A stretch of DNA of 32,000 bases from Candidatus Saccharimonadota bacterium (GCA_001761425.1 CP012986.1:480001-512000); one strand, 5' to 3'; positions 1 to 32,000 are shown, counted from the first letter of the stretch. Made by a program: numbers and translations. The notes: generated from the letters alone by a model not told the origin.

Positions 1-1691
1 TCTGGGAGCTAGTCACGTTGATTGATGTCATGCTTCTCGGTCACTGGATCGAGATGAGAAGTGTTAGAAAGGCCTCGGGCGCGCTGGAGGAACTGAAAAA
101 GCTGATGCCAGATACTGCTGAGAGAATTACAGAAGGAGAGACTGAAGAGGTTAAAGTCTCAGAGCTGGAAGCCGCAGATTGCTCAAATAGAGAATCTGCT
201 TGCAGCAGCAATCCAGAGGAATGCTGCGAAGGTGATAAAGTGCTTGTCAGGCCTGGAGATTCAATACCGGCGGACGGAGAAGTTTTTGAGGGAGAGTCTT
301 CTGTCGATGAATCCATGATAACAGGTGAATCAAAACCCGTCGACAAGTCAGAGGGAGATGAGGTTATCGGAGGAACTGTCAACAAGGAAGGTTCTCTGAG
401 GATCGAGATAACTGCTACAGGAGAGGAAACTGCTCTTTCCGGCATCATGAACCTGGTGGAGGAAGCTCAGGAATCAGAATCAAGGTCTCAGAAGCTCGCG
501 GACAGGGCAGCAGGACACCTGTTCTACATCGCGCTCGGATCAGGCCTTGTAACAGGCATCGTTTGGACTCTGGCGGTTGGCTTCGGATTAACTGTCATTG
601 AACGCGTTGTGACGGTTCTCGTAATCGCCTGTCCGCATGCTCTAGGCCTTGCTGTACCGTTGGTTGTTGCTATTAATACGTCGATGGCGGCAAAAAACGG
701 TATCCTGGTGAGAGACAGGATTGCGATGGAGGAGGCGAGGAAACTGGATACAGTTATTTTTGATAAGACAGGCACTCTGACCGATGGAGAACAGTCTGTG
801 GTTGATATGGAAGCTGAGAATCGGGATGAGGCCTTGAAGAAGATGGCAGCTGCTGAATCTGATTCCGAACATGTAATCGCACAGGCGATCAGGGAGAAAG
901 CTCACGAGGAAGGCCTTGAAATTCCTGATTCCTCGAATTTTGACAGTATCTCCGGTAAAGGAGTTAGGGCAGAGGTTGAAGCCAGGGAGGTCTACGTTGG
1001 AGGCCCTAATATGCTGGAGCATCTTGGAGTCGAGAAAAAATTCGGAGACTTTGCTGATAAGTCCGGGGAGGAGGGCTATACAGTGGTCTACGTGGTTGAG
1101 GGTGACGAGGTTACGGCTGCTGTTGCTCTGGCTGATAAGATCCGTGATGAGAGCCGTGAAGCTGTTGAGGAACTTCAGGGTCGAGGCCTTGAGGTTGCGA
1201 TGCTGACTGGAGATTCTGAAGATGTTGCTGAGTCTGTCGCTGGGGAACTCGGTATTGATACCTGCTTCGCAGAAGTTTTACCGGAGGATAAGGATTCTAA
1301 GGTTCAGGAGATCCAGGATGAAGGTAAAGAGGTTGCGATGGTCGGTGACGGGGTTAACGATGCGCCAGCTCTTACAAGAGCGGACGTTGGAATCGCGATT
1401 GGTTCCGGTACTGATGTAGCGGTGGAGTCCGCGGATATCATCCTGGTGAGAAATGATCCTCTGGCGGTCGTTAGACTTCTCAACCTGTCTGATTTGAACT
1501 ACAGCAAGATGATTCAGAACCTGTTCTGGGCAACAGGGTATAATGCTCTTGCGATTCCGCTTGCAGCCGGTGTTGCAGCACCGATCGGTATCATGCTTTC
1601 GCCAGCGGTTGGAGCCGGTATAATGTCACTGTCGACTGTTATAGTTGCGATTAATGCCCAGTTGATGAGGAGAAAGAGTATCGAGGCCTAA
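1..1691 (+). CDS. P1B-type heavy-metal (copper) translocating P-type ATPase, 5' end outside window
   Basis: The frame is open from nt 3 ([15 protein letters not shown]...), so the TTG at 18 is not the true start. Motifs seen: ITGES (actuator), [13 protein letters not shown] (CPH membrane metal site, CopB-like rather than CPC), DKTGTLT phosphorylation site, [15 protein letters not shown] hinge. Confidence 0.9.
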
Positions 1692-2902
1692 CTTCTGTAA
1701 CGGCAGTTTATCTCGTCTTTTCTGTTTTCTATGACTTCTTTCTTTTCCTCAGTGTCTTCGGGTATTATTCTTTCGCCGTATTCGCCTCCTCCGCCCGGTA
1801 TCATCACTATTTCATCGTTTCTGAACTTCCTGATAGATTCTGCCACTTCTCTATCAACCTGGGCCAGCTGCTGGATATCCTTCTCCACCAGTATATCTAT
1901 TTCAGCGCCGAACTCCTTGTTCAACGTCTCATACCTGTCCTGAACAGTCTTTGTCGTCGGAGAGGCGTGGCCTACCGTGTACTGGATAATTTTCGCTAGC
2001 GGAGGAAGATGCAGGTAATCAACACTGTAGCCAGATTCCTTGTCTGATAATTCGTTGACTCTGTCTCTAACTCCTTTCTTGATCGTTCCAGAACACTCCT
2101 GGCAGCTCCAGTCAAAATCTTTCGCTTCCTCAACTGAGTACTTCTGATGGCAGGAGTTGCACGCTGAACAGTGGTACTTTCCTTCTCGCGGGTCAAGGCC
2201 TACGTTTAACCTGAGTTCACCAGCTTTTCCTTTGAAGAGCTTTTTCAGGCCTTCAAAGCTTTCCTCTTCCAGTTCTGCACGGTTAAATTCCCGGCCTAAA
2301 CGATGTGGCCATGGAGAGTGTGCATCACTGTTCGATAGAAAGACTAAGTCTTTATGTTCTGAGATTTTGGAAGCCATCTCGGAGTCTGCGGAGAGGCCTA
2401 GCTCCAGGAAATCCAGGTTTTCGACCTGGTCGCCGTAGCATTCTTTTAACGAATCTTTCTTCCCGTAGACCGCAGTGTAGGGTGTGAATGCGTGGCAAGG
2501 CCCGATTAAACAATCGTGTTTCTTCGCGATTTCTACTATTTTCTCGCCGTTTGCTTTGATTCGAGGCCTTCCCTCTCTCCTTATATCATCGCTGAGTTCC
2601 TGGAAATCCTGGTAGGCCTTCTCTACTGTTTCAAGGTCGGGAAAGATTATCAGGTGGTGGATTCGATCTTCGTCCTCTACCTCTGTAGTGGGTAGAAACT
2701 TGATGTCTCTGTGTTTCAGGTATCCATTTTTCTCAATAGTTTCTTCTTTTACGTGTTGGAGCCACTTCGGGTTTAAGATGTCTCCGGTTCCGACCATGTC
2801 GAGGCCTTTCTTTTCTGCTTCTTCGGCGATTACAGGTATCTCCATCTCCGGGGATACTCCGCCCGAGTGTTTTCCGTGGATGTGCAGGTCGAAGTCGGTC
2901 AT
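1688..2902 (-). CDS. PHP-domain endonuclease Q-like protein (TIGR00375 family)
   Basis: 404 aa with an ATG start. The N-terminus has the PHP signature [13 protein letters not shown], with later HAFTP and SNSDAHSP histidine motifs. An internal CxxC...CxxC zinc finger is present ([10 protein letters not shown]...WSCQECSG). Length and architecture match archaeal EndoQ. The stop overlaps the convergent ATPase stop by 4 nt. Confidence 0.75.
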
Positions 2903-3053
2903 CCTCTATCTGAACTGTTGAGGCCTGATTTTTTATGGATTCCTGAATCAGGTTTTTCCGATGTATCTTATCGAATCGGCTGGCTTCTCGGTTTTACAGG
3001 TAGGCCTGTTCGGGTACTTCCTCATAAAAATCTCCAGGAGAGGATAGGACACA

Positions 3054-3542
3054 GTGGACAGAAAAGAAAAGATATTTATCGCGGCCGCAGCACTCCTCAT
3101 TACCCTGGTAGCGATAACAGTCCTGACATCTCCTGATTCCAGAGAAGGCCTCGACGGCGACAGGGTTAATGCAACATTTGACATACGTGAGAAACCATGG
3201 GTGCTTCTTCAAGTCGCTGATAATGAAACAGAGAGGAGAGAAGGCCTCATGAACGTGACGGAACTCGGGAAGCACGAGGGAATGATATTCATCTACAAAA
3301 AGGAGGCTCCGAGAGGTTTCTGGATGAAAAACACGTTGATACCGCTGGACATGATATTCCTCGACGCGGACAGACAGGTCATCAACGTGGAGACGGCCTA
3401 TCCAGAGCCGAACACTTCTGAGGAAAACCTGACTCTTTACAGAAGTGAAAGGCCTGCCAAGTACGTTATAGAAGTGAACGCAGGGTTTGCGGAGAACTAT
3501 TCTGTAGAGGAAGGAGATGCTGTGGAATGGAATCAGCCCTGA
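3054..3542 (+). CDS. DUF192 domain protein with N-terminal membrane/signal helix
   Basis: GTG start preceded by AGGAG at about 3036. Hydrophobic N-terminus IFIAAAALLITLVAITVL. DUF192-like core: REGLMNV...GMIFIY...FWMKNTLIPLDMIFLD...VIEVNAG. Confidence 0.75.
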   Translation: MDRKEKIFIAAAALLITLVAITVLTSPDSREGLDGDRVNATFDIREKPWVLLQVADNETERREGLMNVTELGKHEGMIFIYKKEAPRGFWMKNTLIPLDMIFLDADRQVINVETAYPEPNTSEENLTLYRSERPAKYVIEVNAGFAENYSVEEGDAVEWNQP

Positions 3543-3559
3543 AGATTAATTTTTCTGGA

Positions 3560-5023
3560 CTAGGTGAATCTTTCGAGATCGCTCTGTGGAGCACCTGCTT
3601 TCTCCAGTATATCTTCTCTGTCGTGTCTCGAACTCAGTGAGGCCTTCTTCCAAAGCTTGTCGTCCTCAAACGCAGCGTAGGCCTCTGGTGCTTTCTTCTT
3701 GAAGAATTTCCTAGCCTTCTTCGCTTCTTTACTGTAATCGAGAATAGGTTCAGGATAGTTCCTGCCGATCCTGACCCCGCATTCCTCCTGAACTTTCTCC
3801 GGCATCTTCCACGGCTCCGCAATATACTGGTCAGGAACAGGCCTTAATTCTGGAAGGTATTTCCGGATGAACTTTCCATCAGGGTCGTTGTCCTCTACCT
3901 GTTTTGTCGGATCGTAAATCCTGTTTGCGTGGACGCCGATTAAACCGCTCTGCATCTGCCACTGGTAGTAGTTTATCGCGACATCAGCGTCTATCAGGTG
4001 TTTGTAGAAGTGATCTGCCCCAATCTTCCACCATTGCTTCAAAATATAGCTGAAAAAAGAGGCACACATAGCCCGCATCCGGAAGTTCAGCCAGCCAGTT
4101 TCCCTCAGGGCACGCATCGACGCATCTACCAGTGGATAACCTGTCTCACCTTTTTTCCAGGCCTCAACTTTCTCCTCATCGAAGTTTTCCTTGTTCAGGC
4201 CTCTGTAGACAGGGTTGATCGCCTCCCTGAACAGCTTGGAGTTAGCCTCGATTTTTCTCTGGAAATGCTTCTGCCAGACAATCCTGTCCAGAAACATCTG
4301 TACGCTTTGAACGTTTTCGACCTCGTATTTCTTTTCCTCAGCTTCTTGGTAGACCTCACGCGCCGATATACAGCCGTAACGGATGTAAGGCGAGAGATGG
4401 GACGTAGAGGCCTCCGCCTTTGAAGGGGACGAGATACAGCCTGAATACTGGCCGATTCTGTCATTGAATTCCTCTAAACGGTTTAAGGCCTCATCTCTTC
4501 CGCCCCTACCGAACTTTTCCTTGTCAGACTCGATTTCGTATTTTTCTCTGATTCTGTCTATCGATACCTCTGAACTTACTGGAGGCCTTGAAAGTTTTTC
4601 TCCTGGACTGTGAGGCCTCGAGCTGAAGTATTCGCTGATTCTTTCTTTCCAGGCCTGTCTTTCAATGTTTTCTGTGGCTGGGCTCTGGCTAAAATCTCTG
4701 TATTTTTCTCTCAGAATTTTTTCTCTTTTCTGCTGGAAATGGTTGGGGTCTCGGTTGAAGAAAATACTGTGATCTTTCGAGAGTTTTTCCAGCTTTTCTT
4801 CTGGATCTCCGTGAACCAGTGTAAGATGTGTTCCGAGCTCGGTGTACTGACGGTTCAGGTCCTTCAAAGATTCCAGGACGAACTCTATCCTCTGATCCGA
4901 GACAAGATCGTTTTCAAGCCACGAAGGATCAAATATGAAGACTGGAAAGGCCTCTTCTCCTGCCTCTGAGACAGCTCTGTTGTCGTATGCTCTGAAATCG
5001 TATCTGTGGAGGACCAGGTCCAT
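3560..5023 (-). CDS. cryptochrome/photolyase family protein (FAD-binding; subclass unresolved)
   Basis: The ORF track gives 3560..5128. I place the start at Met36 (5023, MDLVLHRYDFRAYDN...) because the longer form overlaps the upstream gene by 35 nt and photolyases begin with this beta-strand. C-terminal FAD-domain motifs: GETGYPLVDASMRAL..TGWLNFRMRAMCASF, QWQMQSG, NRIYDPTKQ. It has WQKHF where class I enzymes have WREF. Confidence 0.85.
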   Translation of the reverse strand: MDLVLHRYDFRAYDNRAVSEAGEEAFPVFIFDPSWLENDLVSDQRIEFVLESLKDLNRQYTELGTHLTLVHGDPEEKLEKLSKDHSIFFNRDPNHFQQKREKILREKYRDFSQSPATENIERQAWKERISEYFSSRPHSPGEKLSRPPVSSEVSIDRIREKYEIESDKEKFGRGGRDEALNRLEEFNDRIGQYSGCISSPSKAEASTSHLSPYIRYGCISAREVYQEAEEKKYEVENVQSVQMFLDRIVWQKHFQRKIEANSKLFREAINPVYRGLNKENFDEEKVEAWKKGETGYPLVDASMRALRETGWLNFRMRAMCASFFSYILKQWWKIGADHFYKHLIDADVAINYYQWQMQSGLIGVHANRIYDPTKQVEDNDPDGKFIRKYLPELRPVPDQYIAEPWKMPEKVQEECGVRIGRNYPEPILDYSKEAKKARKFFKKKAPEAYAAFEDDKLWKKASLSSRHDREDILEKAGAPQSDLERFT

Positions 5024-5093
5024 ATCATTTAGTGTTGGTCCTACTGTTAAATTAGAGATCAGTACCGAAATTTTTGCTGTCTGTAGATAGGCC

Positions 5094-5597
5094 TCAGCTC
5101 CATTGGTTTTCCATGTTTCCGAAGGCATGGGTCAGTGATCTTTCTGTGAACTCTGGCCGGTCTATCTCTCCTTCTGTCAGCAGTGATACTGCGCCTTTTC
5201 CCTCTCTCAGATCTTCTCCCATCACTTCTACCATGACGTCGCCGAGTTCCTTCTCCTCAAGCTTCTCTGAGATCTCTTCTGGAAGCCTGGATCTACCGCT
5301 GCCACCCTCATAGAATTTCTCGCCGTCAAAGATAGTCGACCACACTGATAGAAATACTTTACCGCCTATCTCCTCGACATAGCCCTCTACACCGACTCCC
5401 AACAAGTCTTTATCTCCCGTTTTAAAGGCCTGTCTGGCTCTTTTCTCTGCACCTTTCTTCGCCTCCTCTACTGACATCGGTTGATCAGGTGCATCTACCT
5501 TGACCGACCTGATTTCATATTCGCTGTAGAATCTTTCAGCTGACTGCTTCAAGGCCTTGACTTTAGCTTTGTTCTCTGATCCCAGGACTAGTTTCAC
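5094..5597 (-). CDS. inosine/xanthosine triphosphatase (DUF84 / YjjX-family non-canonical purine NTPase)
   Basis: 167 aa, GTG start. Colinear by eye with YjjX-type proteins: N-terminal GSENKAKVKAL, PDQPMSVEEAKKGAEKRA, GVGVEGY, C-terminal KGAVSLLTEGEIDR. Confidence 0.7.
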   Translation of the reverse strand: MKLVLGSENKAKVKALKQSAERFYSEYEIRSVKVDAPDQPMSVEEAKKGAEKRARQAFKTGDKDLLGVGVEGYVEEIGGKVFLSVWSTIFDGEKFYEGGSGRSRLPEEISEKLEEKELGDVMVEVMGEDLREGKGAVSLLTEGEIDRPEFTERSLTHAFGNMENQWS

Positions 5598-6475: not shown

Positions 6476-6542
6476 CCCCGCCTAAAAAAGTGCTCTAAAA
6501 CACTCAACCACATTCAAACCATTTTCCCACCAAAACCCAAAC

Positions 6543-7259
6543 ATGGAAACCGATAACTCGGAGGAAAGAATCAGAAACATCCATCAAGACCTTCTGGATG
6601 TGTATGGAGAACAGGGAGATCACGACGATGAAGACGGTGTCAGACAGCTCTTAATCACGATACTTTCACAGAACGTAGCGGATGAAAACACGGCAAGAGC
6701 AGCGGAAAACCTGTTCAACGACTTCAAAAACTACAGAGAGATAGAAAAGGCCTCTGTCGAAAAACTTGCGGACTCTATCAATCCTGCAGGCCTTCCGGAG
6801 ACAAAGGCGGAGAGAATCCAGAGAACCTTGAAGGCCTTGAAAAAGCATGGAGATTCAGACAACTACAGTGTAGATTTTCTCGGCGAGATGGAGGATTCAG
6901 AGGCACAGGCCTGGCTTGAAGAGATCAAAGGCATAGGCCCGAAGACAGCATCTGTTTTACTAAATTTCCATTTCGATGCAGATGTTATGCCGGTGGACAC
7001 ACACGTAGAAAGAATTTCTAAACGTTTTGGACTGATTCCGTTTTCAGCTTCAAATGAAAAAGCCCACGAGCTTCTGAACGAATCAGTTCCGCATGAAATA
7101 AAGAACAGTTTCCACATGCTGATGATTGAACACGGGAAAAACAACTGCACGGCCAGAAACCCGACTTGTGAAGACACGAAGCTGAAAAATTACTGCAGCT
7201 ATTACCAGAAAGTCAAAACCGGCGATCTAGAGCCTGAAGAGTATCCAGAAGAGGCCTGA
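6543..7259 (+). CDS. nth: endonuclease III-like HhH-GPD DNA glycosylase/lyase
   Basis: HhH motif IKGIGPKTASVLL including the catalytic-type Lys, VDTHVERI Asp motif, and a C-terminal Cys cluster CTARNPTCEDTKLKNYC. Confidence 0.85.
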   Translation: METDNSEERIRNIHQDLLDVYGEQGDHDDEDGVRQLLITILSQNVADENTARAAENLFNDFKNYREIEKASVEKLADSINPAGLPETKAERIQRTLKALKKHGDSDNYSVDFLGEMEDSEAQAWLEEIKGIGPKTASVLLNFHFDADVMPVDTHVERISKRFGLIPFSASNEKAHELLNESVPHEIKNSFHMLMIEHGKNNCTARNPTCEDTKLKNYCSYYQKVKTGDLEPEEYPEEA

Positions 7260-7262
7260 CCC

Positions 7263-7868
7263 ATGAGTATTGAAGATGCGATCGACAACTGGTCATCAGT
7301 CAAGAAATTCACAGATAGAGAAATCGAGGAGGAGAAACTGGAGAAAATTTTTGATTTGACGACGAACGCTCCGACAGCCTTTAACTTACAGCCTTACAGG
7401 TTCATCGTCCTCGACTCAGAAGAGGCTAAAGAAAAAGCCGTGAACTCCGCAATACCGATCAACAGATGGATCCAGTACGCCGACAAAATTGTTGTTCTGG
7501 TAGGGGATGAGGAGATCGATGTTAACGCTGACCAGGTTCTCAGCCATAAGCTGGAGGAAGGAAAAATCGACGAGGAGAAAGCAGAAAATCTCAGAGAGAT
7601 GTATAAGAGGTACAAGAACCGTGACGACGAGTTCATAATGGGCTGGCTCACACGGAACACGATGATTCCGGCCACATCCTTCATGCTGGCCTGTAAAAAC
7701 TTCGGAATCGGTAGCTGTCCTGTAAGAGGTTTCAGCCAGCCGAAACTTTCCGAAAAACTAGATCTGAAGGAAACTGAGAGGCCTATTTTGCTGATTCCGA
7801 TCGGTTATCCTCGTGAAGAGGACAGGAATTGGAGAAGAGATGGGGAAGAAATTTTTGAGATTCGCTAG
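7263..7868 (+). CDS. nitroreductase family protein
   Basis: 201 aa. RSVKKF-like N-terminus (WSSVKKFTDREI), APTAFNLQPYRFIVL, C-terminal LLIPIGYP. These are typical of the NAD(P)H nitroreductase fold. Confidence 0.8.
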   Translation: MSIEDAIDNWSSVKKFTDREIEEEKLEKIFDLTTNAPTAFNLQPYRFIVLDSEEAKEKAVNSAIPINRWIQYADKIVVLVGDEEIDVNADQVLSHKLEEGKIDEEKAENLREMYKRYKNRDDEFIMGWLTRNTMIPATSFMLACKNFGIGSCPVRGFSQPKLSEKLDLKETERPILLIPIGYPREEDRNWRRDGEEIFEIR

Positions 7869-8219
7869 AAGTTCGTAATTCTACTTCAGAAGGTTTCTCC
7901 TCCAGTTGAAGACTTTTTCTCGTCAGCGTAAGCCTGAAATCAAAGCCTCCCTCATCAAGCCAGATAATCCTATCACTACTTTCACACTCCTTCCGACGGT
8001 TATTTGCACCTCCCAAAAAACTACAGCATCTCTACAAAGACCTCATTCAAGAACCTCCGGTAAGTGGATTTTGCCGGGCTGAGGTGCTCAAAAAACTTTT
8101 GGAGAACCTGAAACTTTAATCAGTAACTTCTTTTCACTAGCTTCAATCTCTGATAATTTCCTAATCTTGCCAAGAGAGTTCTAGATAGTTTTTTAACGAT
8201 TGATAAACAAATCGTCAAT

Positions 8220-8369
8220 ATGCCAGAGGCGGTGGAAAAACCAGAAGACAGGGATGCAGATGAACTTCTGGAAAGATTCAAGCAGTCAGCGAAGGAAGCT
8301 GTAGAAGGCAAGACCTCTAAAATAGGAGAGGTCAAAGATCGGATTGAAGGAAAGAAACAGGATCACTGA
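8220..8369 (+). CDS. possible small charged protein (49 aa), not in the ORF track
   Basis: My manual translation is MPEAVEKPEDRDADELLERFKQSAKEAVEGKTSKIGEVKDRIEGKKQDH*. Its composition fits the acidic proteome better than the Ser/Leu-rich antisense ORF 8120..8335. It converges on the 8332..8670 gene and overlaps it by 38 nt, which lowers confidence. Confidence 0.25.
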   Translation: MPEAVEKPEDRDADELLERFKQSAKEAVEGKTSKIGEVKDRIEGKKQDH

Positions 8370-8670
8370 TTTTCTTCGTCAGCTTTTTAGCCTCTTTCTT
8401 GGTCAATACCGTTAAACAGTAAATCTTGCCGTTATCTTTTTCGTCGAGATATTTTCCTTCTAGGAACCATGCTCTGAAGTCACGTCCAAGATTCATCTGC
8501 AAAACAGGATTCATATTACCGGAAAGATACTTGTCAAGCGCCTGACCTGGCGAAGCACCGATACCAAGATTCTTTTCAATAGACTCAACCTTGCTGTAAA
8601 AAGTATCTCTCACCCTGCTGGAAAATCGCTCCAAATCCTCTTCCGCAGTCTCAGTGACTTTGATTTCCAT
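8332..8670 (-). CDS. RelE/ParE-superfamily-like toxin-fold protein
   Basis: 112 aa. The N-terminus IKVTETAEEDLERFSSRVRDTFYSKVESIEKN parallels the canonical 'xxFSxxAxKDLKKLxxxxxxRIxxxIxxLxxNP' helix pair. The later LQMNLGRDFRAWFLEG...KIYCLTVLTKKEA parallels 'RxRVGDYRxIYxI...IxIxxIxHRKxxY'. Pattern-level evidence only. Confidence 0.4.
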   Translation of the reverse strand: MEIKVTETAEEDLERFSSRVRDTFYSKVESIEKNLGIGASPGQALDKYLSGNMNPVLQMNLGRDFRAWFLEGKYLDEKDNGKIYCLTVLTKKEAKKLTKKISDPVSFLQSDL

Positions 8671-8676
8671 TGATTA

Positions 8677-9345
8677 TTATTCTTCACCTTGTTCGATTTC
8701 ACTTATTCTACTTTCGAAGAATGCCTTAGCCACTGGTAGATCTTTTTCCTCTCTGACATCAAACTTGTTGCCGTCAGCATCAATGAGCCGAAGTTTTACA
8801 TCTTCAGGGGCTTCTGAAGGCGATTGAATATTCTTATTTGATGCTTCGTTTAATTCACCCGAGGACTCCTCAGTTCCTTCCGTAGTCTTTTGAGGCTCAT
8901 AATCTAACATTTCGCTGTAAAGTTTCTTTACCTTATCCGCATGATTTTTGGCCTCTCCAGGAGTGGTGTCCGCAACCTCACTGACCTTAATCCAGAAATC
9001 CTCTCCAGCAGGCTTACCTCCGGTGTACTCATATAGCTCATGTAGGAGATCAATATTCTGCAAAGCCTGAAACTTAGCTCTCCTCTCTGCCTCATCACTC
9101 TTAGGGTGGACAATATCTCTGCCGAGGTCAGTTGCCTCGTAATTATTGTCAACCAAGCCAAACTTCTTCAAATCTGCTCTCTTCTTTTTATAGGCTCCAG
9201 AATTTGCATTTTTATGCCCAATAGCTTGAGCAAAGTTCTCTTGGTTATTAATCTGGCTATTCAGCTCTTTAACAAGAATCTCAATGTTTTCAAGAGCATC
9301 ATCAAACCCATACCGAGGAAACCTAAAGTCACCGATGTTTGGCAT
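8677..9345 (-). CDS. hypothetical protein (222 aa), possible helix-turn-helix N-terminal half and acidic linker
   Basis: ATG start. It ends 7 nt upstream of the RelE-like gene, an operon-like spacing. Acidic composition. I recognise no family. The segment FAQAIGHKNANSGAYKKKRADLKKFGLVD...TDLGRDIV looks wHTH-like. Confidence 0.6.
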   Translation of the reverse strand: MPNIGDFRFPRYGFDDALENIEILVKELNSQINNQENFAQAIGHKNANSGAYKKKRADLKKFGLVDNNYEATDLGRDIVHPKSDEAERRAKFQALQNIDLLHELYEYTGGKPAGEDFWIKVSEVADTTPGEAKNHADKVKKLYSEMLDYEPQKTTEGTEESSGELNEASNKNIQSPSEAPEDVKLRLIDADGNKFDVREEKDLPVAKAFFESRISEIEQGEE

Positions 9346-9367
9346 AACTATGTAATAGCCATAAAAA

Positions 9368-9375
9368 CTTATAAA
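9368..9375 (-). promoter_or_regulatory. TATA box for the 222-aa gene (leaderless spacing)
   Basis: The minus strand reads TTTATAAG, beginning 23 nt upstream of the ATG at 9345. Confidence 0.35.
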
Positions 9376-9423
9376 TGCTGCGGGAGCTACGGCTTTCTTT
9401 GCTCAATCGGATAAATATTTGCT

Positions 9424-11277
9424 CTAGACTTCCCTGAATTTCTCTAGAATAGAGGCATTCTCATCCTCCTGAGTATCCAGCGAATCGAGCACCGTCTCAA
9501 CCTCTTCCTCGTTCAAATCATAAAGGTTGAAGACGATCGCATCAATCAATTTATCGGTCTCCTGAATCTCGCTCTCTAACTCTTCAGCTTCTTCCCTGTT
9601 ATCAATGAATTTTTCCAGGCCTGATTCTACATCTTCCAGTTTTGGCAAAGTCAACTCTTCCAACCTGTCGACAACAGAGTTGGTCTTTGTAGCCGATTCT
9701 CTGAAGTTGGCGAAGCCGTCGGCCTCCTCTACAGCCAGAGAAACAAACTCCTCAATCAGAGGCTTCAACTTCTCATCAACATCGAATTTCATCACAGGCA
9801 CTGACTCGGTCTCAAAGTAACCCCACCGATCTAACTCATCCTCATCAATATTTTCACTGTCCTCAGGCTTGTAACGAGCAGAAGCCATTAAGATTAATTG
9901 GGTATTTCTCTCTTCGAACTCGACACCGCCAATCCTCAAAGAATCACGATCAGCAGAAGTATCACTCAAAACATAATCAGAAAGGCCTTCAGCTGGCGTG
10001 TAGAGATCGCCTAAAGTTTTGCCGTCGGAGTAATTTCCTAAATAGTCTTGGATATTGAGATTGATTGAGTTCAGAGATTCTTTCAGATTCAGCATATGCT
10101 CAACTTTATCCTTAATCTGTGGATCTGTTTGATCTGATAATAAGGGCAACTCGTTCATATACTGGGTTTTGAATCTAAGATAGCCTCCTCTAGCTTTAGC
10201 ACATTCTATTGAGAGATACCACTCTAATAGAGAAGAATTTAGCTGTGAGAGGTGGAAATTACTATTTGAGTCTAGGATGAATCCCGTCATATCTAGGAAG
10301 GTTCCATCATCCATTGTAAAGTTAGCGACTTTGGATATATCAGGATAAATGATTTTTTCTTCTTCAAACTTGTCATAGTAGTCGCAAGCCCTTAGTTCGT
10401 ACCATTCTAGAGAAGAGTTCTTAATGTCATACCTTTCTGCTAGAGACTCCTTATTTTCTCTTAAGTAACCAGCCACACCTGAGTAATCATTTAGGTCAAT
10501 CGGCTCTAGTTCTCCATCTTTCTTTTCATATGGGAAAAGAAGGAATTTTTCATTTTCAGGTCTGCTATATCTCTTTACTTCTTCACCTTTCAAGAATGGT
10601 CTGAAGAGATCTTTCTCATGTTCCTCATTAACTATATCCCTAATATCATCTTTATCGACGATATAGACCTCATTTAAGCCAGTTTTTATGCCAACCAGAG
10701 GTTCCCCTATTACATCGGAAAGAGGTTCTCCTTTATCTTGAACTTTATTTCGAATATCTTTTTCAGTTTCTGAGATAAATTTCCATTCCCCTGTGCCTAG
10801 TGCAGAAAGTGGGACTTCTTTGGCGAGTTCACTTACTTTCTTTGTGAGATTGTCAAATCCTAGATCCTTAAATTGAGCATATTTGAATTTATCTGCATCC
10901 AATTGCTTGGACAAAATAACTGTAGCCGGGTAAGCACTCACATCATCTCCAAATACTGGAAGATCTTGGAAGTCAATGAATTCTTCCAGCGTTGTTTCCT
11001 CCATTAGATAGTTTCTAAGAGTTTCTCCTGAATCTACTTTAGTAAATTTATGAGAGACAATATATCCGAGTTTATCAGATGCTATATAATTAGCTCTCTC
11101 AATGAAATAAGAATAGAGATCGCCTCTACCTGTGTAGACATCATAATTAAGTTCTAGATACTCTTTGAGTTCTGTGATTACTTCTTGTCTGACATATGGA
11201 GGGTTTCCTATTACTGCGTCGAAGCCAGTTGAATCGTGTGTGTGTGTGTGTGTGTGTGTATTTTTCTTTTTGCTCAA
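9424..11277 (-). CDS. type IIG restriction-modification enzyme, C-terminal fragment (MTase motif IV plus target-recognition region)
   Basis: The ORF opens at a TTG just before the repeat: (M)SKKKN-THTHTHTH-DSTGFDAVIGNPPYV. NPPY is motif IV of gamma-class N6-adenine MTases. This is followed by DLYSYFIE, GYIVSHKF, a long variable TRD-like region and the typical tail LYDLNEEEVETV. It is not an independent gene; it continues 11147..13579 in another frame. Confidence 0.85.
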   Translation of the reverse strand: MSKKKNTHTHTHTHDSTGFDAVIGNPPYVRQEVITELKEYLELNYDVYTGRGDLYSYFIERANYIASDKLGYIVSHKFTKVDSGETLRNYLMEETTLEEFIDFQDLPVFGDDVSAYPATVILSKQLDADKFKYAQFKDLGFDNLTKKVSELAKEVPLSALGTGEWKFISETEKDIRNKVQDKGEPLSDVIGEPLVGIKTGLNEVYIVDKDDIRDIVNEEHEKDLFRPFLKGEEVKRYSRPENEKFLLFPYEKKDGELEPIDLNDYSGVAGYLRENKESLAERYDIKNSSLEWYELRACDYYDKFEEEKIIYPDISKVANFTMDDGTFLDMTGFILDSNSNFHLSQLNSSLLEWYLSIECAKARGGYLRFKTQYMNELPLLSDQTDPQIKDKVEHMLNLKESLNSINLNIQDYLGNYSDGKTLGDLYTPAEGLSDYVLSDTSADRDSLRIGGVEFEERNTQLILMASARYKPEDSENIDEDELDRWGYFETESVPVMKFDVDEKLKPLIEEFVSLAVEEADGFANFRESATKTNSVVDRLEELTLPKLEDVESGLEKFIDNREEAEELESEIQETDKLIDAIVFNLYDLNEEEVETVLDSLDTQEDENASILEKFREV

Positions 11278-19282: not shown

Positions 19283-19303
19283 GAGGCCTTTTTTTCAGGC
19301 CTC
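19283..19303. terminator. hairpin made of two AGGCCT copies between convergent genes
   Basis: GAGGCCT-ttttttc-AGGCCTC, a 7-bp stem. It lies 6 nt beyond the RNase J stop. On the minus strand it is followed by CTTTTTTCTTT; on the plus strand the loop itself is a T7 run. Confidence 0.45.
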
Positions 19304-22094: not shown

Positions 22095-22115
22095 GAAGGC
22101 CTTTGACAGGCCTTC
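22095..22115 (+). terminator. hairpin made of two AGGCCT copies downstream of gatD
   Basis: GAAGGCCT-ttgac-AGGCCTTC, an 8-bp stem. It lies 42 nt after the gatD stop and is followed by TTGTTT. Confidence 0.4.
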
Positions 22116-23062: not shown

Positions 23063-23318
23063 ATTCGCAGGAACCATACCCTCAACGACATCAAAGGCCT
23101 ACGATGAAGAGAAAAAAGCAGAAAAGGCCTTCCAGGAGCTTTACGAAGGCCTTGATGGAACCTATGATCTCAGAGAGATAGGAGATATGTCTGCTATCTA
23201 CGAGGATGGAGAGAGTTCTCCTGTAGCTACAAGAGAAGGCGATACACTGACTTTGCTAGGTGAGGATATCGAGGAGACATTCAGGGATCTCGGCTATGAA
23301 CTTGAGGTGAACGAATAA
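23049..23318 (+). CDS. hypothetical small acidic protein, translationally coupled to gatE
   Basis: 89 codons from a TTG; the first in-frame ATG is at codon 47. Acidic composition. Its TAA stop overlaps the gatE ATG (TAATG) at 23318. No family recognised. Confidence 0.45.
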   Translation: MPDHEFAGTIPSTTSKAYDEEKKAEKAFQELYEGLDGTYDLREIGDMSAIYEDGESSPVATREGDTLTLLGEDIEETFRDLGYELEVNE

Positions 23319-25165
23319 TGGATTATGAAGAACTTGGATTCAAATGCGGTATAGAGATACATCAACAGCTTAACACGGAGGAAAAACTTTTCTGCAACTG
23401 CCCCGTCGAACTTGAGGATGAGGCAGCAGATGCGAACGTCGAAAGATATCTTAGAGCGGTCGCAGGAGAGAGCGGAGAGAAGGACGAAGCTGCTGAGCAG
23501 GCAGCACGTCGTTCACAAAAGTTCGTGTACAACTACTACAGTAGAAACAACTGTCTGGTCGAGATCGACGAGGAACCACCTCATTCTATGGACGAGGAGG
23601 CCTTGGAAACTGCTTTGACCTTTGCTCGTATGGTAGATGCGAATATCCCGGCAGAGATCCAGGTAATGCGTAAAATGGTCGTCGATGGCTCCAACACTTC
23701 AGGTTTCCAGAGGACAGCTATGGTAGGCCTTGATGGGAAACTTGAGACAGACTCAGGTAAAGTTACTATCGATGACATTGAACTTGAGGAAGAATCTGCT
23801 GGAGTGCATGAGAGAACACAGGAGGAAGCAGTTTACGATCTTAACAGGCTGGGCGTACCGCTTGTGGAGGTAGGAACCGATGCATCGATCAAGAACCCGG
23901 AACATGCCCGCGAAGTGGCGGAGGAGATCGGAATGCTTTTGAGATCAACAGGAAAAGCAAGGAGAGGCCTTGGAACTATCAGGCAGGACGTCAACGTCTC
24001 TATCGACGGCGGATCAAGGGTTGAAATCAAGGGCTTCCAGGATGTCGAGAACATCGATAAACTGATAGAGCTGGAGGTTAGGAGACAGAAAAATCTCATC
24101 GACCTCGGAAAGGAACTGGAAAAACAGGAGATAGTAGGAGACAACGTAACTCATCACTTCGAGGACACAGATAACCATATTGTTTCTACAGTGCTTGAAA
24201 ACGATGGAGCAGTCTACGCACTGAAGCTTCCAGGCCTTACTGGCAAGATGAAGCAGAATATCTCCGGCGAACGCTACCTGGCGAAAGAACTCGTCGACTA
24301 CGCAAAGGCAGAAGGTGTACAGGGCATTCTACACACAGACGAGGACCTTGAAAATTATGGTCTTGTAGAGGAGTTCGGAAAGGTCGCAGAAGACTTCAGG
24401 AAAGAAGACGAAGACGTAATAGCAGTAATCGCAGCAGAGGAAGAGAAGGCAAAAGCTGCAGCCCAGTCAGTACAGAAGAGAGCAGAGATGATTTATACTG
24501 GGGAAATCCCTGAAGAAACCAGAGCTGCAGAACAGAACTTCACAACCTCTTATTCAAGGCCTCTACCGGGAAGCGCAAGAATGTACCCTGAAACAGATAT
24601 CCCATCGATCAGGATAGAAGACGAAGAAGTCGAAGAAATTGATGAGAATCTGCCGAGGACTCTGGAGGAAAGAGAAAAACAGTACAGAGAAGAAATCGGC
24701 GGAGAACTTGCCTCACAGATCGTAGGCTCGGAAAGACTAGGCCTCTTCGAAAAATTCAAGGAAAACTACGATTCCAAGCTGGTCGCAAACTTCTTCACAA
24801 ATACCCTGGCTCAGCTGGAGAAAGAGTACAGAGTCAAATCCCTTGGAGAACAGGACTTCAGGGCGATCTTCGAAGGCCTCAAATCTGAGGACATCGCAAA
24901 AGACGATATAGAGGAAGTTGTTGAAAGAGTTGCTTCAGGAGAAAAAACAGAGGAAGTCATAGAAGACATCGCCGAGAAAAAGGCCTCCGAAGATGATATA
25001 CGTGAAGCGGTCAGAGAAGTCCTTGATGAGAAAAGTGACATGGTGGAGGAGCAGGGTATGCATTCTCAGGGTGCTTTGATGGGAGTTGTTATGGCCCGTG
25101 TCGAGGCCTCGGGAGATCAGGTTTCAGAGATTCTTCAGAAGGAGCTTCAGGAAAGAGTTGATTAG
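23318..25165 (+). CDS. gatE: Glu-tRNA(Gln) amidotransferase subunit E
   Basis: 615 aa. N-terminus LGFKCGIEIHQQL, then SGFQRT, EEESA, VPLVEV, RQDVNVSI, and a C-terminal GatB/YqeY-like tail. Confidence 0.93.
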   Translation: MDYEELGFKCGIEIHQQLNTEEKLFCNCPVELEDEAADANVERYLRAVAGESGEKDEAAEQAARRSQKFVYNYYSRNNCLVEIDEEPPHSMDEEALETALTFARMVDANIPAEIQVMRKMVVDGSNTSGFQRTAMVGLDGKLETDSGKVTIDDIELEEESAGVHERTQEEAVYDLNRLGVPLVEVGTDASIKNPEHAREVAEEIGMLLRSTGKARRGLGTIRQDVNVSIDGGSRVEIKGFQDVENIDKLIELEVRRQKNLIDLGKELEKQEIVGDNVTHHFEDTDNHIVSTVLENDGAVYALKLPGLTGKMKQNISGERYLAKELVDYAKAEGVQGILHTDEDLENYGLVEEFGKVAEDFRKEDEDVIAVIAAEEEKAKAAAQSVQKRAEMIYTGEIPEETRAAEQNFTTSYSRPLPGSARMYPETDIPSIRIEDEEVEEIDENLPRTLEEREKQYREEIGGELASQIVGSERLGLFEKFKENYDSKLVANFFTNTLAQLEKEYRVKSLGEQDFRAIFEGLKSEDIAKDDIEEVVERVASGEKTEEVIEDIAEKKASEDDIREAVREVLDEKSDMVEEQGMHSQGALMGVVMARVEASGDQVSEILQKELQERVD

Positions 25166-28310: not shown

Positions 28311-28331
28311 GAGTGAACTTGATTAGTCAAT

Positions 28332-28892
28332 ATGACACGATCTATTAGGTCAAGATTTAGTCGAAAAGGTATAACGCCTATAATCGCCACGGTCCTGCTT
28401 CTAGGTATTACTGTTGCGATCGGTTTAACTGTTTACACCCAGGCACAGGGAATGATTGGAAATACTGATACATCAAATATTAACAGATTGCAGGAGACAG
28501 ATGTTAGTTTGACGCCAGTATTTGATAACGATGGCGAAATGCAAGTCCAAGTCAGTAATAAGGGAGACCGGGCGATCAACGTGAGTGACTTTACAGTATA
28601 CTACGGTCCTCCAAACTATGATCCGGTATCCTACTCAGTGCTTGAGGCACAGGCTTCAGACTGGACAGTAGGAAATGATGGAAATCAGTGCTTTACCTCG
28701 AACATGTCCTCAGGAGCAGATTCTATGGACAATGATATCCTTGAACAGGGAGAAAGAGCGTCCTGTTCGACAGGCGTGAAATTCCCTGGAGCGCTTGAAT
28801 CTGTAGAGATCAGAGTTGAGGCGGACGACTTTGAATACAGCCAGTCCACGTTGTGTAGCGTGGACAGCGAGGACGCAAACAGCTGTAGTTAG
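28332..28892 (+). CDS. archaeal type IV pilin-like protein (paralog A)
   Basis: MTRSIRSRFSRKG/ITPIIATVLLLGITVAIGLTVYTQAQG. 186 aa with four Cys, including the C-terminal CSVDSEDANSC. Confidence 0.85.
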   Translation: MTRSIRSRFSRKGITPIIATVLLLGITVAIGLTVYTQAQGMIGNTDTSNINRLQETDVSLTPVFDNDGEMQVQVSNKGDRAINVSDFTVYYGPPNYDPVSYSVLEAQASDWTVGNDGNQCFTSNMSSGADSMDNDILEQGERASCSTGVKFPGALESVEIRVEADDFEYSQSTLCSVDSEDANSCS

Positions 28893-29006
28893 AAAACCTC
28901 GGCCACCCATATTTTTCACTTATTTCTTCCTCAGCTTATCTTCTTTTTCTGGAGTCTTCACACACCGAGACTTTTTTGTACTGTAAGTTGAAGGCCTTTC
29001 CGAGGA

Positions 29007-29017
29007 ATTTTTAAAGA
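29007..29017 (+). promoter_or_regulatory. TATA box upstream of pilin paralog B
   Basis: AATTTTTAAAG is centred about 26 nt upstream of the second in-frame ATG (29038). This suggests a leaderless start at 29038 and a 13-residue leader, the same length as in paralog A. Confidence 0.3.
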
Positions 29018-29028
29018 AGGATTGACAT

Positions 29029-29589
29029 ATGTCCTATATGCTTAGAGATAAGTCTGAAATGTCGACAAGGAAAGGTATAACGCCCATTATTGCGACTGTT
29101 TTGCTTCTGGGTATTACTGTTGCAATTGGTTTAACTGTTTACACCCAGGCTCAGGGCCTTCTTGAGGGAGCTGGAGATACTTCCAATTTTGACAGGGTTA
29201 GAGCTACAAGTATATCCTTGAGTCCTGTCTACAGCGATAGTGGTATGCAGTTGCAGGTCAGTAACAAGGGAGATCGGGCGATTAATGTAACTGATTACAC
29301 GATTTACTATGGTCCTCCGAATTATGATCCCGTGACATGGGAAGTTCTTGATGCTCAGACTGATAACTGGGTAGCAGGAAATGGGAATAAGTGTTTCACT
29401 CCAGATATGAAGGATTCCGATCAGATGGATAACAACATTATCGAGCCTGGAGATAGGGCTACATGTTCTACAGGCGTGGCGTTCCCGGGGGCGCTTGAAT
29501 CAGTGCAGATCAGGGTTGAAGCTGATGATTTCAATTACGATACGGGTTATACCTGTTCTGTTGATTCGTCCAGTGCCAAGACATGTTAG
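29029..29589 (+). CDS. archaeal type IV pilin-like protein (paralog B; start may be 29038)
   Basis: ...MLRDKSEMSTRKG/ITPIIATVLLLGITVAIGLTVYTQAQG. The mature N-terminus is identical to paralog A. The four Cys positions are shared, with C-terminal CSVDSSSAKTC. Confidence 0.85.
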   Translation: MSYMLRDKSEMSTRKGITPIIATVLLLGITVAIGLTVYTQAQGLLEGAGDTSNFDRVRATSISLSPVYSDSGMQLQVSNKGDRAINVTDYTIYYGPPNYDPVTWEVLDAQTDNWVAGNGNKCFTPDMKDSDQMDNNIIEPGDRATCSTGVAFPGALESVQIRVEADDFNYDTGYTCSVDSSSAKTC

Positions 29590-29652
29590 TTTTTTCTTTT
29601 CTTTCTTATCACCTTGTTTTATATTTAGGTATTACCTATACTTGTTTAGTTT

Positions 29653-30297
29653 ATGAAAGGTCAGACTCAGGCTGTTACGGCTGTTATGATTACGGGCATT
29701 GTTATGGGAGGTATTGGAACTGCGTATCTTTGGGGTGTTCCAATGCTGGAGAAAAGACAGGTTGAACAAGAAGTTACTACAACGGAAGAAGATGTTTTGA
29801 ATCTCAGAGAGGAGATTGAATCCGTGAGTCAGAGAGGTTCGGGAGCTTCGTCCTCTGTCTCTATAGATGCAGATACTATAACGGTAAATAATGAGGATGA
29901 GTATATTCAGATCACAAATCAGCTGGATCAGTCAGCTGAACAGGGCTTTACATGGAGTCTTCTCGATGGTCAGGGATATCAGAATCTTTCGTGGACTACT
30001 GGTGTAGCAGCTATAGAAGGAGAGGATACTCCTGGTGTAGTTGCTTTCCGGTCAGTGGCTGGAGAGGACTCTTCTGAAATCACTTACCGTGTAGAGTTCA
30101 GAAACCTGTGTTCGGAGAGTTCTGGCGAGGTTTCAAAAGTAGATATTGAATCTGATGGGCAGACCAGGGCCTCTGGAAGCACTGAAATCACCTTCACCAA
30201 CGATGGGGAAGAGGTCAGTAACACTGTGATTCCAGATGGCGCATGTGAAGGAAGGACCACCCGGACCAGCACCCAGATAGGTATACAGTTAGGTTGA
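29653..30297 (+). CDS. pilin-like / minor pilin candidate with class III-like signal
   Basis: MKG/QTQAVTAVMITGIVMGGIGTAYLWG followed by a Ser/Thr/Glu-rich, beta-rich-looking domain. 214 aa. Confidence 0.6.
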   Translation: MKGQTQAVTAVMITGIVMGGIGTAYLWGVPMLEKRQVEQEVTTTEEDVLNLREEIESVSQRGSGASSSVSIDADTITVNNEDEYIQITNQLDQSAEQGFTWSLLDGQGYQNLSWTTGVAAIEGEDTPGVVAFRSVAGEDSSEITYRVEFRNLCSESSGEVSKVDIESDGQTRASGSTEITFTNDGEEVSNTVIPDGACEGRTTRTSTQIGIQLG

Positions 30298-30301
30298 TAG
30301 A

Positions 30302-30718
30302 ATGAGCAAAGGCCAGCACCTGGCTCTGGAATCAGTAGCTACATTTGGCCTTACACTCATAGCAGCAGTAGGAGTTGTCCAGATGTTTGGCCAGGTAAAC
30401 GATGGAGTAGTCACCAGCACCGAGGAAACACAGGCAGAGGTTGTCGGCGACGTGGTAAGAAGTACAGTGATTCAAATGGAATCAAGTTCAGAACAGGAAA
30501 GAGGATACCATCAACTGGAGCTTCCCGAAAAAATAGGGGGAAAAGACTATACTGTGGCACTCAAGCAGGGAAAAGTACTGGTCTTCACAGATAATAACGA
30601 ATTCAGCCAGAACTTCAACCTAGGATCTACAGATAAAGTTCAGGAAGGTTCGGCGCAGGGAGGAAGCGTCCGCATATTCAAAAACAGCGAAGGATACACT
30701 TTGAGGTCAGGAAGATGA
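30302..30718 (+). CDS. pilin-like / minor pilin candidate with class III-like signal
   Basis: MSKG/QHLALESVATFGLTLIAAVGVVQMF. 138 aa. Its stop overlaps the next gene's ATG (ATGA). Confidence 0.55.
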   Translation: MSKGQHLALESVATFGLTLIAAVGVVQMFGQVNDGVVTSTEETQAEVVGDVVRSTVIQMESSSEQERGYHQLELPEKIGGKDYTVALKQGKVLVFTDNNEFSQNFNLGSTDKVQEGSAQGGSVRIFKNSEGYTLRSGR

Positions 30719-32000
30719 ACCCGGGAATGCAGAACTTAATAAAACGTCTACAAAGGCTAAAGCATCCAGAAAGATTCGAACAAAGGGAAGATGAGAGAGA
30801 AGATAGCCCAGGAGTAAGTGTACCTATTCCAGGAGATTTCGATCCAGAAACAGTAGAACAGGAAAGTGAGGAGGAACAAAGTGAAGGCCTTGAGGATACA
30901 GATATAACATATCCTTTGACTCCGACTGATCCTGCGGAAGGAGAAACGGTCTATGCATGGGCTCATATCACCTGGGACGAACAGGGAGAGGAACTTGTAT
31001 ACAGGGTTATAGAGCCTCAGAGAACGCCTAGGACAGATCAGATCCTTGATAAGATCAAAAATATTCTTGAGAGCAGTTTTGACGTTGATTTCAATGAACT
31101 TGCTACTGATGAGGCCCATGAATATCTTGAGGATAAAATTGATCATATTATAGACAAGTATGATATCTCTCTAAACGGTAAGGAACAGCAGATAATCCGA
31201 TACTATGCAAAGAGAGACTTTGTAGGCCTTGGCAAGCTTCAGCCGTTGATGAATGACACAGAGGTTGAGGATATTTCGTGTGACGGCCTTGATATACCTG
31301 TCTATGTTGATCACAGGAATCCGAAGTTTGGTTCGATCAAGACTTCGGTGATGTGGACGGAGGCCGAGGAGCTTAACAGTTTCGTGATGAAGATGGCTCA
31401 GAGATGCGGTAAATCAGTTTCTGTGGCCAATCCTTTGCTTGATGGTTCTCTTCCGGATGGATCACGTGTACAGGCGACACTTGCGACAGATATTGCCAGG
31501 AAGGGTTCGAACTTCACTATCAGAAGGTTTACAGAGGATCCTTTGACACCAGTCCATATGATGGATTTCGAGACAGAGAACGCCCAGTTACTCAGTTATC
31601 TCTGGTTTATGATTGAGCATGAGAAATCTACCTTGATCGCAGGTACTACGGGAGCAGGTAAGACTTCACAGCTCAACGCTTTGTCTCTGTTCATCAAGCC
31701 GGAGAAAAAGATCGTCTCAATTGAGGATACGCCGGAGCTCAGGCTTCCACATGATCACTGGGTGCCGGAAGTCGCAAGAAGTGGTTTCGGATCAAGTGCT
31801 GAAGAAGGCGGAGAAGTATCTCTTGATAACCTGTTGAAGGAGTCTCTGCGTCAGAGGCCTGAGTTTATCATTGTTGGTGAGGTCAGAGGTGAGGAGGCCT
31901 ATATCCTGTTCCAGCAGATGGCCACAGGGCATACAGGTATGTCGACGATCCACGCTGATTCTCTTGGCATGCTTATGGATCGTTTGACAACTAACCCGAT
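30715..32000 (+). CDS. type IV pilus/archaellum-family assembly ATPase (FlaI/PilB/VirB11 superfamily), 3' end outside window
   Basis: Not in the ORF track because it has no stop within the window. I translated it by hand and the frame is open from the ATG at 30715 to 32000. Motifs: Walker A AGTTGAGKTS, SIEDTPEL (Asp box), Walker B PEFIIVGEVRGEEA, His box TGHTGMSTIHA. The N-terminal extension is acidic. Confidence 0.88.
   Translation, partial: MNPGMQNLIKRLQRLKHPERFEQREDEREDSPGVSVPIPGDFDPETVEQESEEEQSEGLEDTDITYPLTPTDPAEGETVYAWAHITWDEQGEELVYRVIEPQRTPRTDQILDKIKNILESSFDVDFNELATDEAHEYLEDKIDHIIDKYDISLNGKEQQIIRYYAKRDFVGLGKLQPLMNDTEVEDISCDGLDIPVYVDHRNPKFGSIKTSVMWTEAEELNSFVMKMAQRCGKSVSVANPLLDGSLPDGSRVQATLATDIARKGSNFTIRRFTEDPLTPVHMMDFETENAQLLSYLWFMIEHEKSTLIAGTTGAGKTSQLNALSLFIKPEKKIVSIEDTPELRLPHDHWVPEVARSGFGSSAEEGGEVSLDNLLKESLRQRPEFIIVGEVRGEEAYILFQQMATGHTGMSTIHADSLGMLMDRLTTNP

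Follow-up and report, generated by a model that had tools for sequence, protein, structure and literature searches.

Why should one short palindrome be written over and over into the genes and spacers of an archaeal genome? The question is raised by a 32,000-nt stretch of DNA (CP012986.1:480001-512000, 45.5% GC), hereafter the window, over the whole of which the hexamer AGGCCT was counted. The window is assigned to Nanohaloarchaea archaeon SG9 (Candidatus Nanopetramus SG9) from Atacama halite; its proteins match NCBI entries AOV94804 and AOV94805, and its gene content is archaeal (GatD/GatE, a thermosome, three photolyase-family genes and a type IV pilus-like locus). It contains no rRNA or tRNA gene. 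We are highly confident that a real, DNA-level and hexamer-specific directional process is at work. AGGCCT in SG9 is a palindrome of the highly iterated palindrome (HIP) kind, neither a repeat element nor a by-product of coding. The process spreads the word by point substitution to almost every tolerant position and then keeps it there, acting locally, one site at a time, and in a lineage-specific manner. No earlier account of AGGCCT enrichment in archaea or nanohaloarchaea was found in open-access papers and preprints, and the genome paper of SG9 does not mention the motif.

Abundance and placement of AGGCCT

An exact count gives 114 copies of AGGCCT in the window (3.56/kb, about one per 280 bp), where an earlier reading made from the sequence alone (the sequence-only reading) had put roughly 110 by eye. 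Its guess of 5–10 copies expected by chance was equally close: base composition at zero order predicts 6.3 copies, an 18-fold excess, and 100 dinucleotide-preserving shuffles produced 7.19 copies (sd 2.34, maximum 14), a 16-fold excess. As it had also pointed out, such an excess is the opposite of the palindrome avoidance driven by restriction. GGCC tetramers number 167 in the window, and 114 of them (68%) lie inside AGGCCT, in agreement with its estimate of two-thirds. A Markov test, which the same reading had proposed as a check at maximal order, gave a divided answer. Under orders 0, 1, 2 and 3 alike, AGGCCT ranks first among the 4096 hexamers by over-representation, while at maximal order (5-mers) the expectation is 102 copies and the test says nothing, since its sub-words AGGCC and GGCCT derive almost wholly from the motif itself. 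We replaced the maximal-order test by orders 0–3 together with protein-preserving shuffles. Shuffling synonymous codons with proteins and codon usage kept left 11.6±3.2 genic copies, compared to 101 observed (z=27.6). The same enrichment is seen in a JGI contig, a Logan assembly, metagenome-assembled genomes (MAGs) from other studies and a complete RefSeq genome, ruling out an artefact of assembly. Over the 43.5 kb of SG9 that could be read (the window plus 8.3 kb upstream and 3.2 kb downstream) there are 146 copies (3.36/kb), which extrapolates to ~3,800 per 1.125-Mb genome.

Genic copies occur on both strands and in codon phases 1/2/3 at 17/41/43, and a further 13 copies fall within 2,276 nt of spacer; this amounts to 5.7/kb in spacers versus 3.4/kb in genes, even though spacers are only 39.5% GC. 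Together with the z-score of the codon shuffle, these figures uphold the earlier claim of a DNA-level signal present on both strands, in spacers and in every phase, and the phases it had assigned to the first-gene copies at 70, 249 and 542 are correct. When the 114 copies are aligned with 12 nt on either side, the logo is flat, save for too few T at -1 and A at +1, a deficit that arises because a TAG stop codon is barred in phase 2. The flat flanks exclude both a longer repeat and a mobile element. An extended motif RAGGCCTY was considered and rejected, its flank bias being accounted for by the same phase 2 stop avoidance. The longer palindromes singled out in the sequence-only reading do exist at the places it gave, AGAGGCCTCT at 12697 and 13645 and AAGGCCTT 15 times in the window, while CAGGCCTG makes up only 4 of the 114 copies. 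Spacing is over-dispersed (coefficient of variation, CV, 1.26) and shows no regularity. An excess of close pairs was looked for and rejected (3 observed against ~5 expected at random, by our own arithmetic from the spacings).

Saturation of permitted positions and its spread among lineages

How completely the motif has been written into coding DNA can be judged from permitted positions, defined as those where AGGCCT could be spelled without changing the peptide (R-P; [K/E/Q]-A-[F/L/S/Y/C/W]; x-G-L). The window contains 130 such coding positions, of which AGGCCT occupies 99 (76%); in most core genes the share is 100% or close to it. The gatE gene (23318..25165, + strand) is fully saturated, with nine of nine positions filled, whereas its orthologs in unenriched relatives carry 0–1 AGGCCT and just 3–8 motif-compatible peptides. 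Filling is likewise complete in a P-type ATPase gene (7/7) and in a TIGR00375-family gene (6/6). A photolyase gene (3560..5128, - strand) holds 12 copies, the top density among the larger genes (7.65/kb), with 12 of 13 permitted positions filled. In gatD (20755..22053, + strand; nine copies) there are 12 motif-compatible peptides, compared to 3–9 in unenriched orthologs, a surplus which indicates that the protein sequence itself has been reshaped. The thermosome gene has a single copy, at one of three permitted positions. RNase J has none because motif-compatible peptides are wanting in every lineage (0–2 throughout), and for the same reason we rejected active avoidance of the motif in this gene.

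The effect on proteins is general. Over the same aligned residues, motif-compatible peptides number 431 in the window and 261 in unenriched orthologs (ratio 1.65, p=1e-10), or 173 versus 85 when the orthologs are GC-matched (ratio ~2). Amino acids at motif sites are identical to those of unenriched orthologs in 26% of cases for phase 2 and 16% for phase 3, compared to a background of 41%. The process is strong enough to alter amino acids at weakly constrained positions.

For comparison, a GatE scan of a genome collection yielded 27 loci, nearly all nanohaloarchaeal and three of them non-nanohaloarchaeal. Strong enrichment (3.0–4.1/kb) is found in the window, in two 'Ca. Nanohalobium sp.' MAGs whose GatE is 88–89% identical to that of the window (L003, L004), in Ca. 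Nanosalina sp. VS9-1 (L007; NZ_CP180230) and in the MAG NHA29 (L012). Three loci are intermediate (L011, 1.85/kb; L024, 0.96/kb; L019, 0.82/kb), and all remaining nanohaloarchaeal loci, along with the three others, are at background (0.55/kb or less). Among those at background are Ca. Nanosalina J07AB43 (L021), a sister of the VS9-1 clade, and other MAGs from the very study that yielded L003 and L004; presence or absence varies even among MAGs sharing one GTDB genus name. Saturation follows a similar course, at 0.59–0.73 in strongly enriched loci (window 0.73), 0.57 in L011, 0.34 in L024, 0.21 in L019 and 0.00–0.21, mostly ≤0.13, in unenriched nanohaloarchaeal loci. In a neighbour-joining tree of GatE the saturated genomes fall in two separate clades, each with unenriched or weakly enriched sister lineages. 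This patchy phylogeny fits an enzyme that has been gained and lost.

At window sites where the spanning amino acids are identical, AGGCCT is present in 36 of 40 cases in strongly enriched genomes versus 13 of 99 in unenriched ones. Its positions are retained more often than those of control hexamers, both among closest relatives (74% vs 23%) and between the enriched clades (44% vs 17%). Against unenriched genomes retention is 4%, compared to 11% for control hexamers, and AGGCCT sites are therefore derived. In orthologs, other hexamers stand opposite them in gap-free alignment. At sites specific to the window or to its closest relatives (8 and 9), the difference usually involves several nucleotides and altered amino acids, meaning that turnover is ongoing. 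With nearly all permitted positions filled, re-creation of a site in the same place mimics conservation, and retention therefore cannot separate one model from another.

In some places the motif lags behind. A low-GC island (8332..13579, - strand, 0.39–0.42 GC) has only 8 of 19 permitted positions filled and no copy at all in 7785-9616; it looks recently acquired. It contains two unknown open reading frames (ORFs) and a split type IIG/PglX-like N6-adenine methylase-nuclease. In the type IV pilus-like locus, four small genes that are read as pilin-like (28332..30718, + strand; one matches DUF7266 weakly) also lack AGGCCT; the first two (28332-29589) have 0 of 4 permitted positions filled and the other two have no permitted positions. 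Lagging of the kind displayed by the island and the pilin-like genes is expected if newly acquired DNA is converted slowly and genome-wide.

The type IIG enzyme (9424-13579, - strand), resembling the PglX of BREX, is encoded by overlapping ORFs of 810 and 617 aa (792 and 526 in the JGI annotation). Intact relatives are single proteins of ~1000 aa, and the split is the same in two assemblies, which makes a frameshifted pseudogene probable. We considered this enzyme as the cause of the enrichment and rejected it: it lies in the lagging island, it is an N6-adenine enzyme, and its closest homologs are found outside the other AGGCCT-rich lineages.

Two further observations bear on movement of DNA between lineages. 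The L024 locus is at background level save for two patches at full density, 4 kb (1-4000) and 0.7 kb (17690-18417) in length, that span orthologs of the photolyase, glycosylase, nitroreductase and pilus ATPase genes of the window; they resemble imports from a lineage rich in the motif, or else a chimeric assembly. In the window, the gene pair for an endonuclease III-like glycosylase and a nitroreductase (6541..7859, + strand; six copies) has 81% nucleotide identity to its counterpart in Ca. Nanosalina VS9-1 (L007 671-1992), versus 70% for gatE, and the glycosylase protein is 88% identical to the VS9-1 version, versus 69% for GatE. This suggests that the pair moved recently between the two AGGCCT-rich clades, or else is under unusually strong constraint.

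Pairs of motif copies also occur as hairpins. Between the convergent amidohydrolase and RNase J genes, the two-copy hairpin GAGGCCT-T7C-AGGCCTC (19283..19303, both strands) folds at -15.6 kcal/mol on the + strand and -15.3 kcal/mol on the - strand (z -2.8 and -4.4) and in the predicted fold looks like a terminator. The hairpin recurs, again with two copies, at the orthologous location in Ca. Nanosalina VS9-1 (L007 6386-6405), while its unenriched sister L021 carries, 3' of the RNase J gene and ~30–60 nt before 6507, a hairpin with the stem GAGGGAA/TTCCCTC. AGGCCT appears to have been written into an already existing stem by paired changes. A second two-copy hairpin, GAAGGCCT-TTGAC-AGGCCTTC (22095..22115), lies 42 nt 3' of gatD and has an 8-bp stem in the centroid structure with a z of only -0.7. 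A comparable arrangement, GAGGCCT-T4C-AGGCCTC (17587..17605), is found within the 5' end of a photolyase gene.

Three photolyase/cryptochrome-family genes are located within 14 kb (3560-5128, 14044-15456 and 16296-17651) of this 1.1-Mb genome. One is of the DPRP (photolyase-related) type, and all three are among the most motif-dense genes; the cluster agrees with the high-UV halite habitat. The amidohydrolase at 17815-19205 (+ strand) is present as two overlapping ORFs that correspond to the N- and C-terminal halves of Amidohydro_1, and may reflect either a frameshift or a genuinely split gene.

What is recognised, and what could drive it

The frequencies of related words indicate what is being recognised. 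GGCC outside AGGCCT has an observed-to-expected ratio (O/E) of 0.63, as in unenriched relatives (0.43–0.86), which excludes a GGCC-specific system and with it the HaeIII-like GGCC methylase entertained in the sequence-only reading. The nine classes of one-mismatch neighbours stand at 0.70–1.33 times the level of GC-matched unenriched genomes, with the exception of GGGCCT/AGGCCC (3.5 times). Each neighbour is at least 6 times rarer per word than AGGCCT and none is drained, a result that tells against the same reading's suggestion of very-short-patch repair. Deamination neighbours are not depleted: the level of AGGTCT/AGACCT is 0.70 times, and that of AGGCTT/AAGCCT 1.06 times, the one in unenriched genomes. 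Variants at inner positions are at background in all lineages, while those at outer positions are raised, lineage by lineage. In L011, a 7.6-kb contig and hence a small sample, AGGCCA/TGGCCT reaches 1.98/kb (6 times the unenriched level) beside 1.85/kb of AGGCCT, with TGGCCA absent; in the VS9-1 clade (L007/L012), AGGCCC/GGGCCT is at 5.7 times the unenriched level. Repair acting at a single position, of the Dcm/Vsr type, would equilibrate the motif with its other neighbours and so could not yield this pattern.

As mechanism we tentatively put forward a StuI-type methyltransferase acting together with post-replicative mismatch correction, an Elhai-type methylation ratchet (PMC4390886), to which we would give somewhat less than an even chance. 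A hexamer-specific recognition enzyme, likeliest a StuI-type AGGCCT cytosine methyltransferase, would be encoded elsewhere in the genome and be coupled to the correction of mismatches after replication. Nascent-strand errors that complete AGGCCT would be marked and so go uncorrected, errors that destroy a site would be repaired, and this escape from repair could lift the fixation of site-creating changes by orders of magnitude. All tolerated positions would then saturate, newly acquired DNA would catch up slowly, and lineages would switch on and off as the enzyme is gained and lost. That saturation reaches one site per 280 bp speaks for a mechanism working per site; the returns on an advantage per fragment (uptake) or per genome (architecture) would be expected to dwindle well below this density. 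Bacterial systems specific for AGGCCT do exist: a restriction-modification system of Alcanivorax borkumensis methylates AgGCcT (PMC12128166).

Several points weigh against such a ratchet. The gene search, which covered ~43 kb of the 1.125-Mb SG9 genome and ~100 kb over all AGGCCT-rich loci, returned no candidate for an AGGCCT-specific methyltransferase, a Vsr, a MutH-like protein or any other such gene. When every long ORF of the nanohaloarchaeal loci was searched by regular expression for motifs of C5- and amino-methyltransferases, the search returned only the split type IIG enzyme among the enriched ones, and NPPY- or DPPY-containing ORFs in two unenriched genomes. The sole DNA methylase in enriched loci is the N6-adenine enzyme of the island, which the lineages do not share. 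To our knowledge, methyl-directed strand discrimination or repair is not known in archaea. The lineage-specific enrichment of five-out-of-six matches (AGGCCA 6-fold in L011, AGGCCC 5.7-fold in the VS9-1 clade) suggests a graded benefit of partial matches, which an all-or-none ratchet fails to predict unless specificity at the outer positions is relaxed. High positional conservation, lastly, is equally expected from purifying selection on functional sites.

A second possibility, which we consider unlikely, is a signal for DNA exchange, where AGGCCT, perhaps methylated, would be favoured in uptake, transfer or integration and the alleles carrying it would spread by molecular drive, a course recently suggested for HIP1 too. 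Placement of the motif at less conserved amino-acid positions and its higher density in spacers would suit such a signal, as would the two-copy hairpins 3' of genes, the scarcity of AGGCCT in acquired islands and the lineage 'dialects' at outer positions. The glycosylase/nitroreductase pair, unusually alike between two rich clades, and the rich patches in the otherwise poor L024 point the same way, and HIP1 of cyanobacteria reportedly raises transformation in a way that depends on methylation (bioRxiv 10.64898/2026.06.24.733823). However, a 6-bp palindrome discriminates poorly, and at one copy per 280 bp an extra site would add almost nothing to the uptake of a fragment, making it hard to account for 76–100% filling and for the rewriting of proteins. 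Close pairs are no commoner than random (3 versus ~5), and relatives possess the type IV pilus-like locus whether enriched or not. We also know of no competence in nanohaloarchaea.

We see a similarly low likelihood for direct selection on each site, which either would be bound by an abundant chromatin or nucleoid protein or would belong to a dense methyl self mark in a symbiont that exchanges cytoplasm with its host. Such selection would explain why sites are retained over control hexamers (74% vs 23%, 44% vs 17%) and why five-out-of-six matches show graded enrichment, and Xu et al. 2018 concluded likewise for HIP1 (PMC5861425). Retention is not discriminating, however, as near-full filling lets re-creation pass for conservation. 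The irregular, over-dispersed spacing (CV 1.26), the existence of sisters with the same lifestyle and gene set but without enrichment, and the strength of selection needed to alter proteins thousands of times all speak against it.

Classical very-short-patch repair, with an m5C enzyme acting on GGCC or AGGCCT and a Vsr- or Mig-like repair of T:G mismatches restoring the motif, is very improbable. AGGTCT/AGACCT is indeed the lowest of the nine neighbour classes, at 0.70 times the unenriched level, and the window does encode an HhH-GPD glycosylase. But a single path of entry cannot raise the motif many-fold above all nine neighbour classes, and GGCC in other contexts is unenriched. The glycosylase (6543-7259) was considered as a Mig-like T:G partner and rejected: it scores as an endonuclease III-like enzyme of the housekeeping type, and unenriched relatives have it as well. 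An artefact of codon usage, favoured dipeptides, composition, a dispersed repeat or assembly has a negligible chance of being the answer, with nothing in its favour except that AGG, GCC, GGC and CCT can serve as codons, and with the codon shuffle (11.6±3.2 versus 101), the use of all phases and spacers, the unconserved flanks, and the enrichment of independent assemblies but not of other MAGs from the same study against it.

Comparison with known systems

Restriction targets are normally avoided, not accumulated, whereas AGGCCT, at an 18-fold excess, shows no avoidance. In Escherichia coli, Dcm/Vsr raises CCWGG and lowers CTWGG, a modest effect in which sequence-directed mismatch repair drains one neighbour; the bias in SG9 is an 18-fold excess with no neighbour drained, that produced by deamination included. 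The uptake signal sequences (USS) of Pasteurellaceae and the DNA uptake sequences (DUS) of Neisseriaceae are over-represented genome-wide, sit at tolerant protein positions, form hairpin pairs after genes, have lineage dialects and spread by molecular drive. They are non-palindromic words of 9–12 nt at ~1/kb with an experimentally demonstrated uptake bias, for which we know of nothing comparable in nanohaloarchaea; AGGCCT is a 6-nt palindrome with uninformative flanks. At a genome size of ~3.1 Mb, Alcanivorax would have ~0.5 AGGCCT per kb. The StuI-type system of Alcanivorax borkumensis SK2 acts on the same word, methylated on both strands as AgGCcT according to single-molecule real-time (SMRT) sequencing, with 1,674 AGGCCT sites and no enrichment reported (PMC12128166).

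A scan of viral contigs for three clustered AGGCCT returned chance matches and tandem repeats among the matches listed. The best dispersed match among those listed is an unrelated phage family (L031/L152-L166; IMG/VR, ~37% GC), with 13 dispersed copies in a cluster of ~3.6 kb and 6–17 times the expected number over 8–20 kb. A phage- or plasmid-like contig of 52% GC (L118) has 22 copies in 10.8 kb (~7.6-fold). Enrichment of AGGCCT may thus occur in other biological contexts too. A viral 19-bp tandem repeat containing the word (CTGCGTAGAGCTTTCAGGC..., L076 435-853) is an ordinary array, unrelated to the dispersed phenomenon.

The closest likeness is to HIP1 (GCGATCGC), a short GC-rich palindrome of cyanobacteria that is 15- to 300-fold over-represented (PMC4390886, PMC5861425). 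Beside the thresholds for a HIP of ~15-fold and 0.2/kb (Elhai 2015, Xu et al. 2018), AGGCCT stands at 16–18-fold and 3.56/kb. It has spread by substitution with no insertion of repeat units, occupies all frames and non-coding DNA without a peptide motif, and is positionally conserved above control words (74% vs 23%, 44% vs 17%). HIP1 is likewise dispersed by substitution in genes and spacers with conserved positions (PMC4390886, PMC5861425), and its distribution is patchy and polyphyletic, with one-mismatch deviations biased outward (PMC4390886). The sequence-only reading had seen a resemblance to HIP1, and the mode of spread, the use of all phases and spacers, the 74% versus 23% retention and the outer-position deviations confirm it. 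Quasi-periodicity with periods of 10–90 kb is a further trait of HIPs (Elhai 2015, Xu et al. 2018), as is a genome-encoded methyltransferase that recognises the palindrome or its core; for AGGCCT, none turned up in the ~100 kb of enriched loci. The differences are that AGGCCT is a hexamer of unrelated sequence in an archaeal (DPANN) host, HIP1 being a cyanobacterial octamer, and that its 3.4–4.1/kb exceeds the 0.2–2.73/kb reported for HIP1.

It is possible, if doubtful, that AGGCCT is the first HIP outside cyanobacteria and in Archaea, switched on and off by lineage through one recognition system gained or lost, and maybe a methylated 'kin' mark. If so, that mark would bias DNA repair or exchange among host-dependent symbionts, and these organisms would offer a minimal, comparative and cultivable model for the 30-year-old HIP1 problem. 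What generates and sustains hyper-abundant palindromes of this type has been a question since 1993; a signal of that kind is found here, stronger, in ~1.1-Mb genomes with on/off sister lineages and existing host-symbiont co-cultures. Such a setting opens the way to phylogenetic profiling, to methylome tests and, through population genetics, to telling repair or mutation bias apart from selection. AGGCCT can also serve as a marker: its scarcity flags recently acquired DNA in rich lineages (the restriction-modification island and the pilin-like genes are examples), and its abundance flags imports from rich donors in motif-poor genomes, as in L024.

The nearest precedent for the word itself is found in Synechococcus sp. 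PCC 6312, a cyanobacterium without HIP1 that over-represents CAGGCCTG at 0.37/kb (O/E 14.7; PMC5861425). The two share the core AGGCCT, but the motif of PCC 6312 is an octamer, whereas in SG9 the flanks are free of signal and the word is about ten times denser, in another domain of life.

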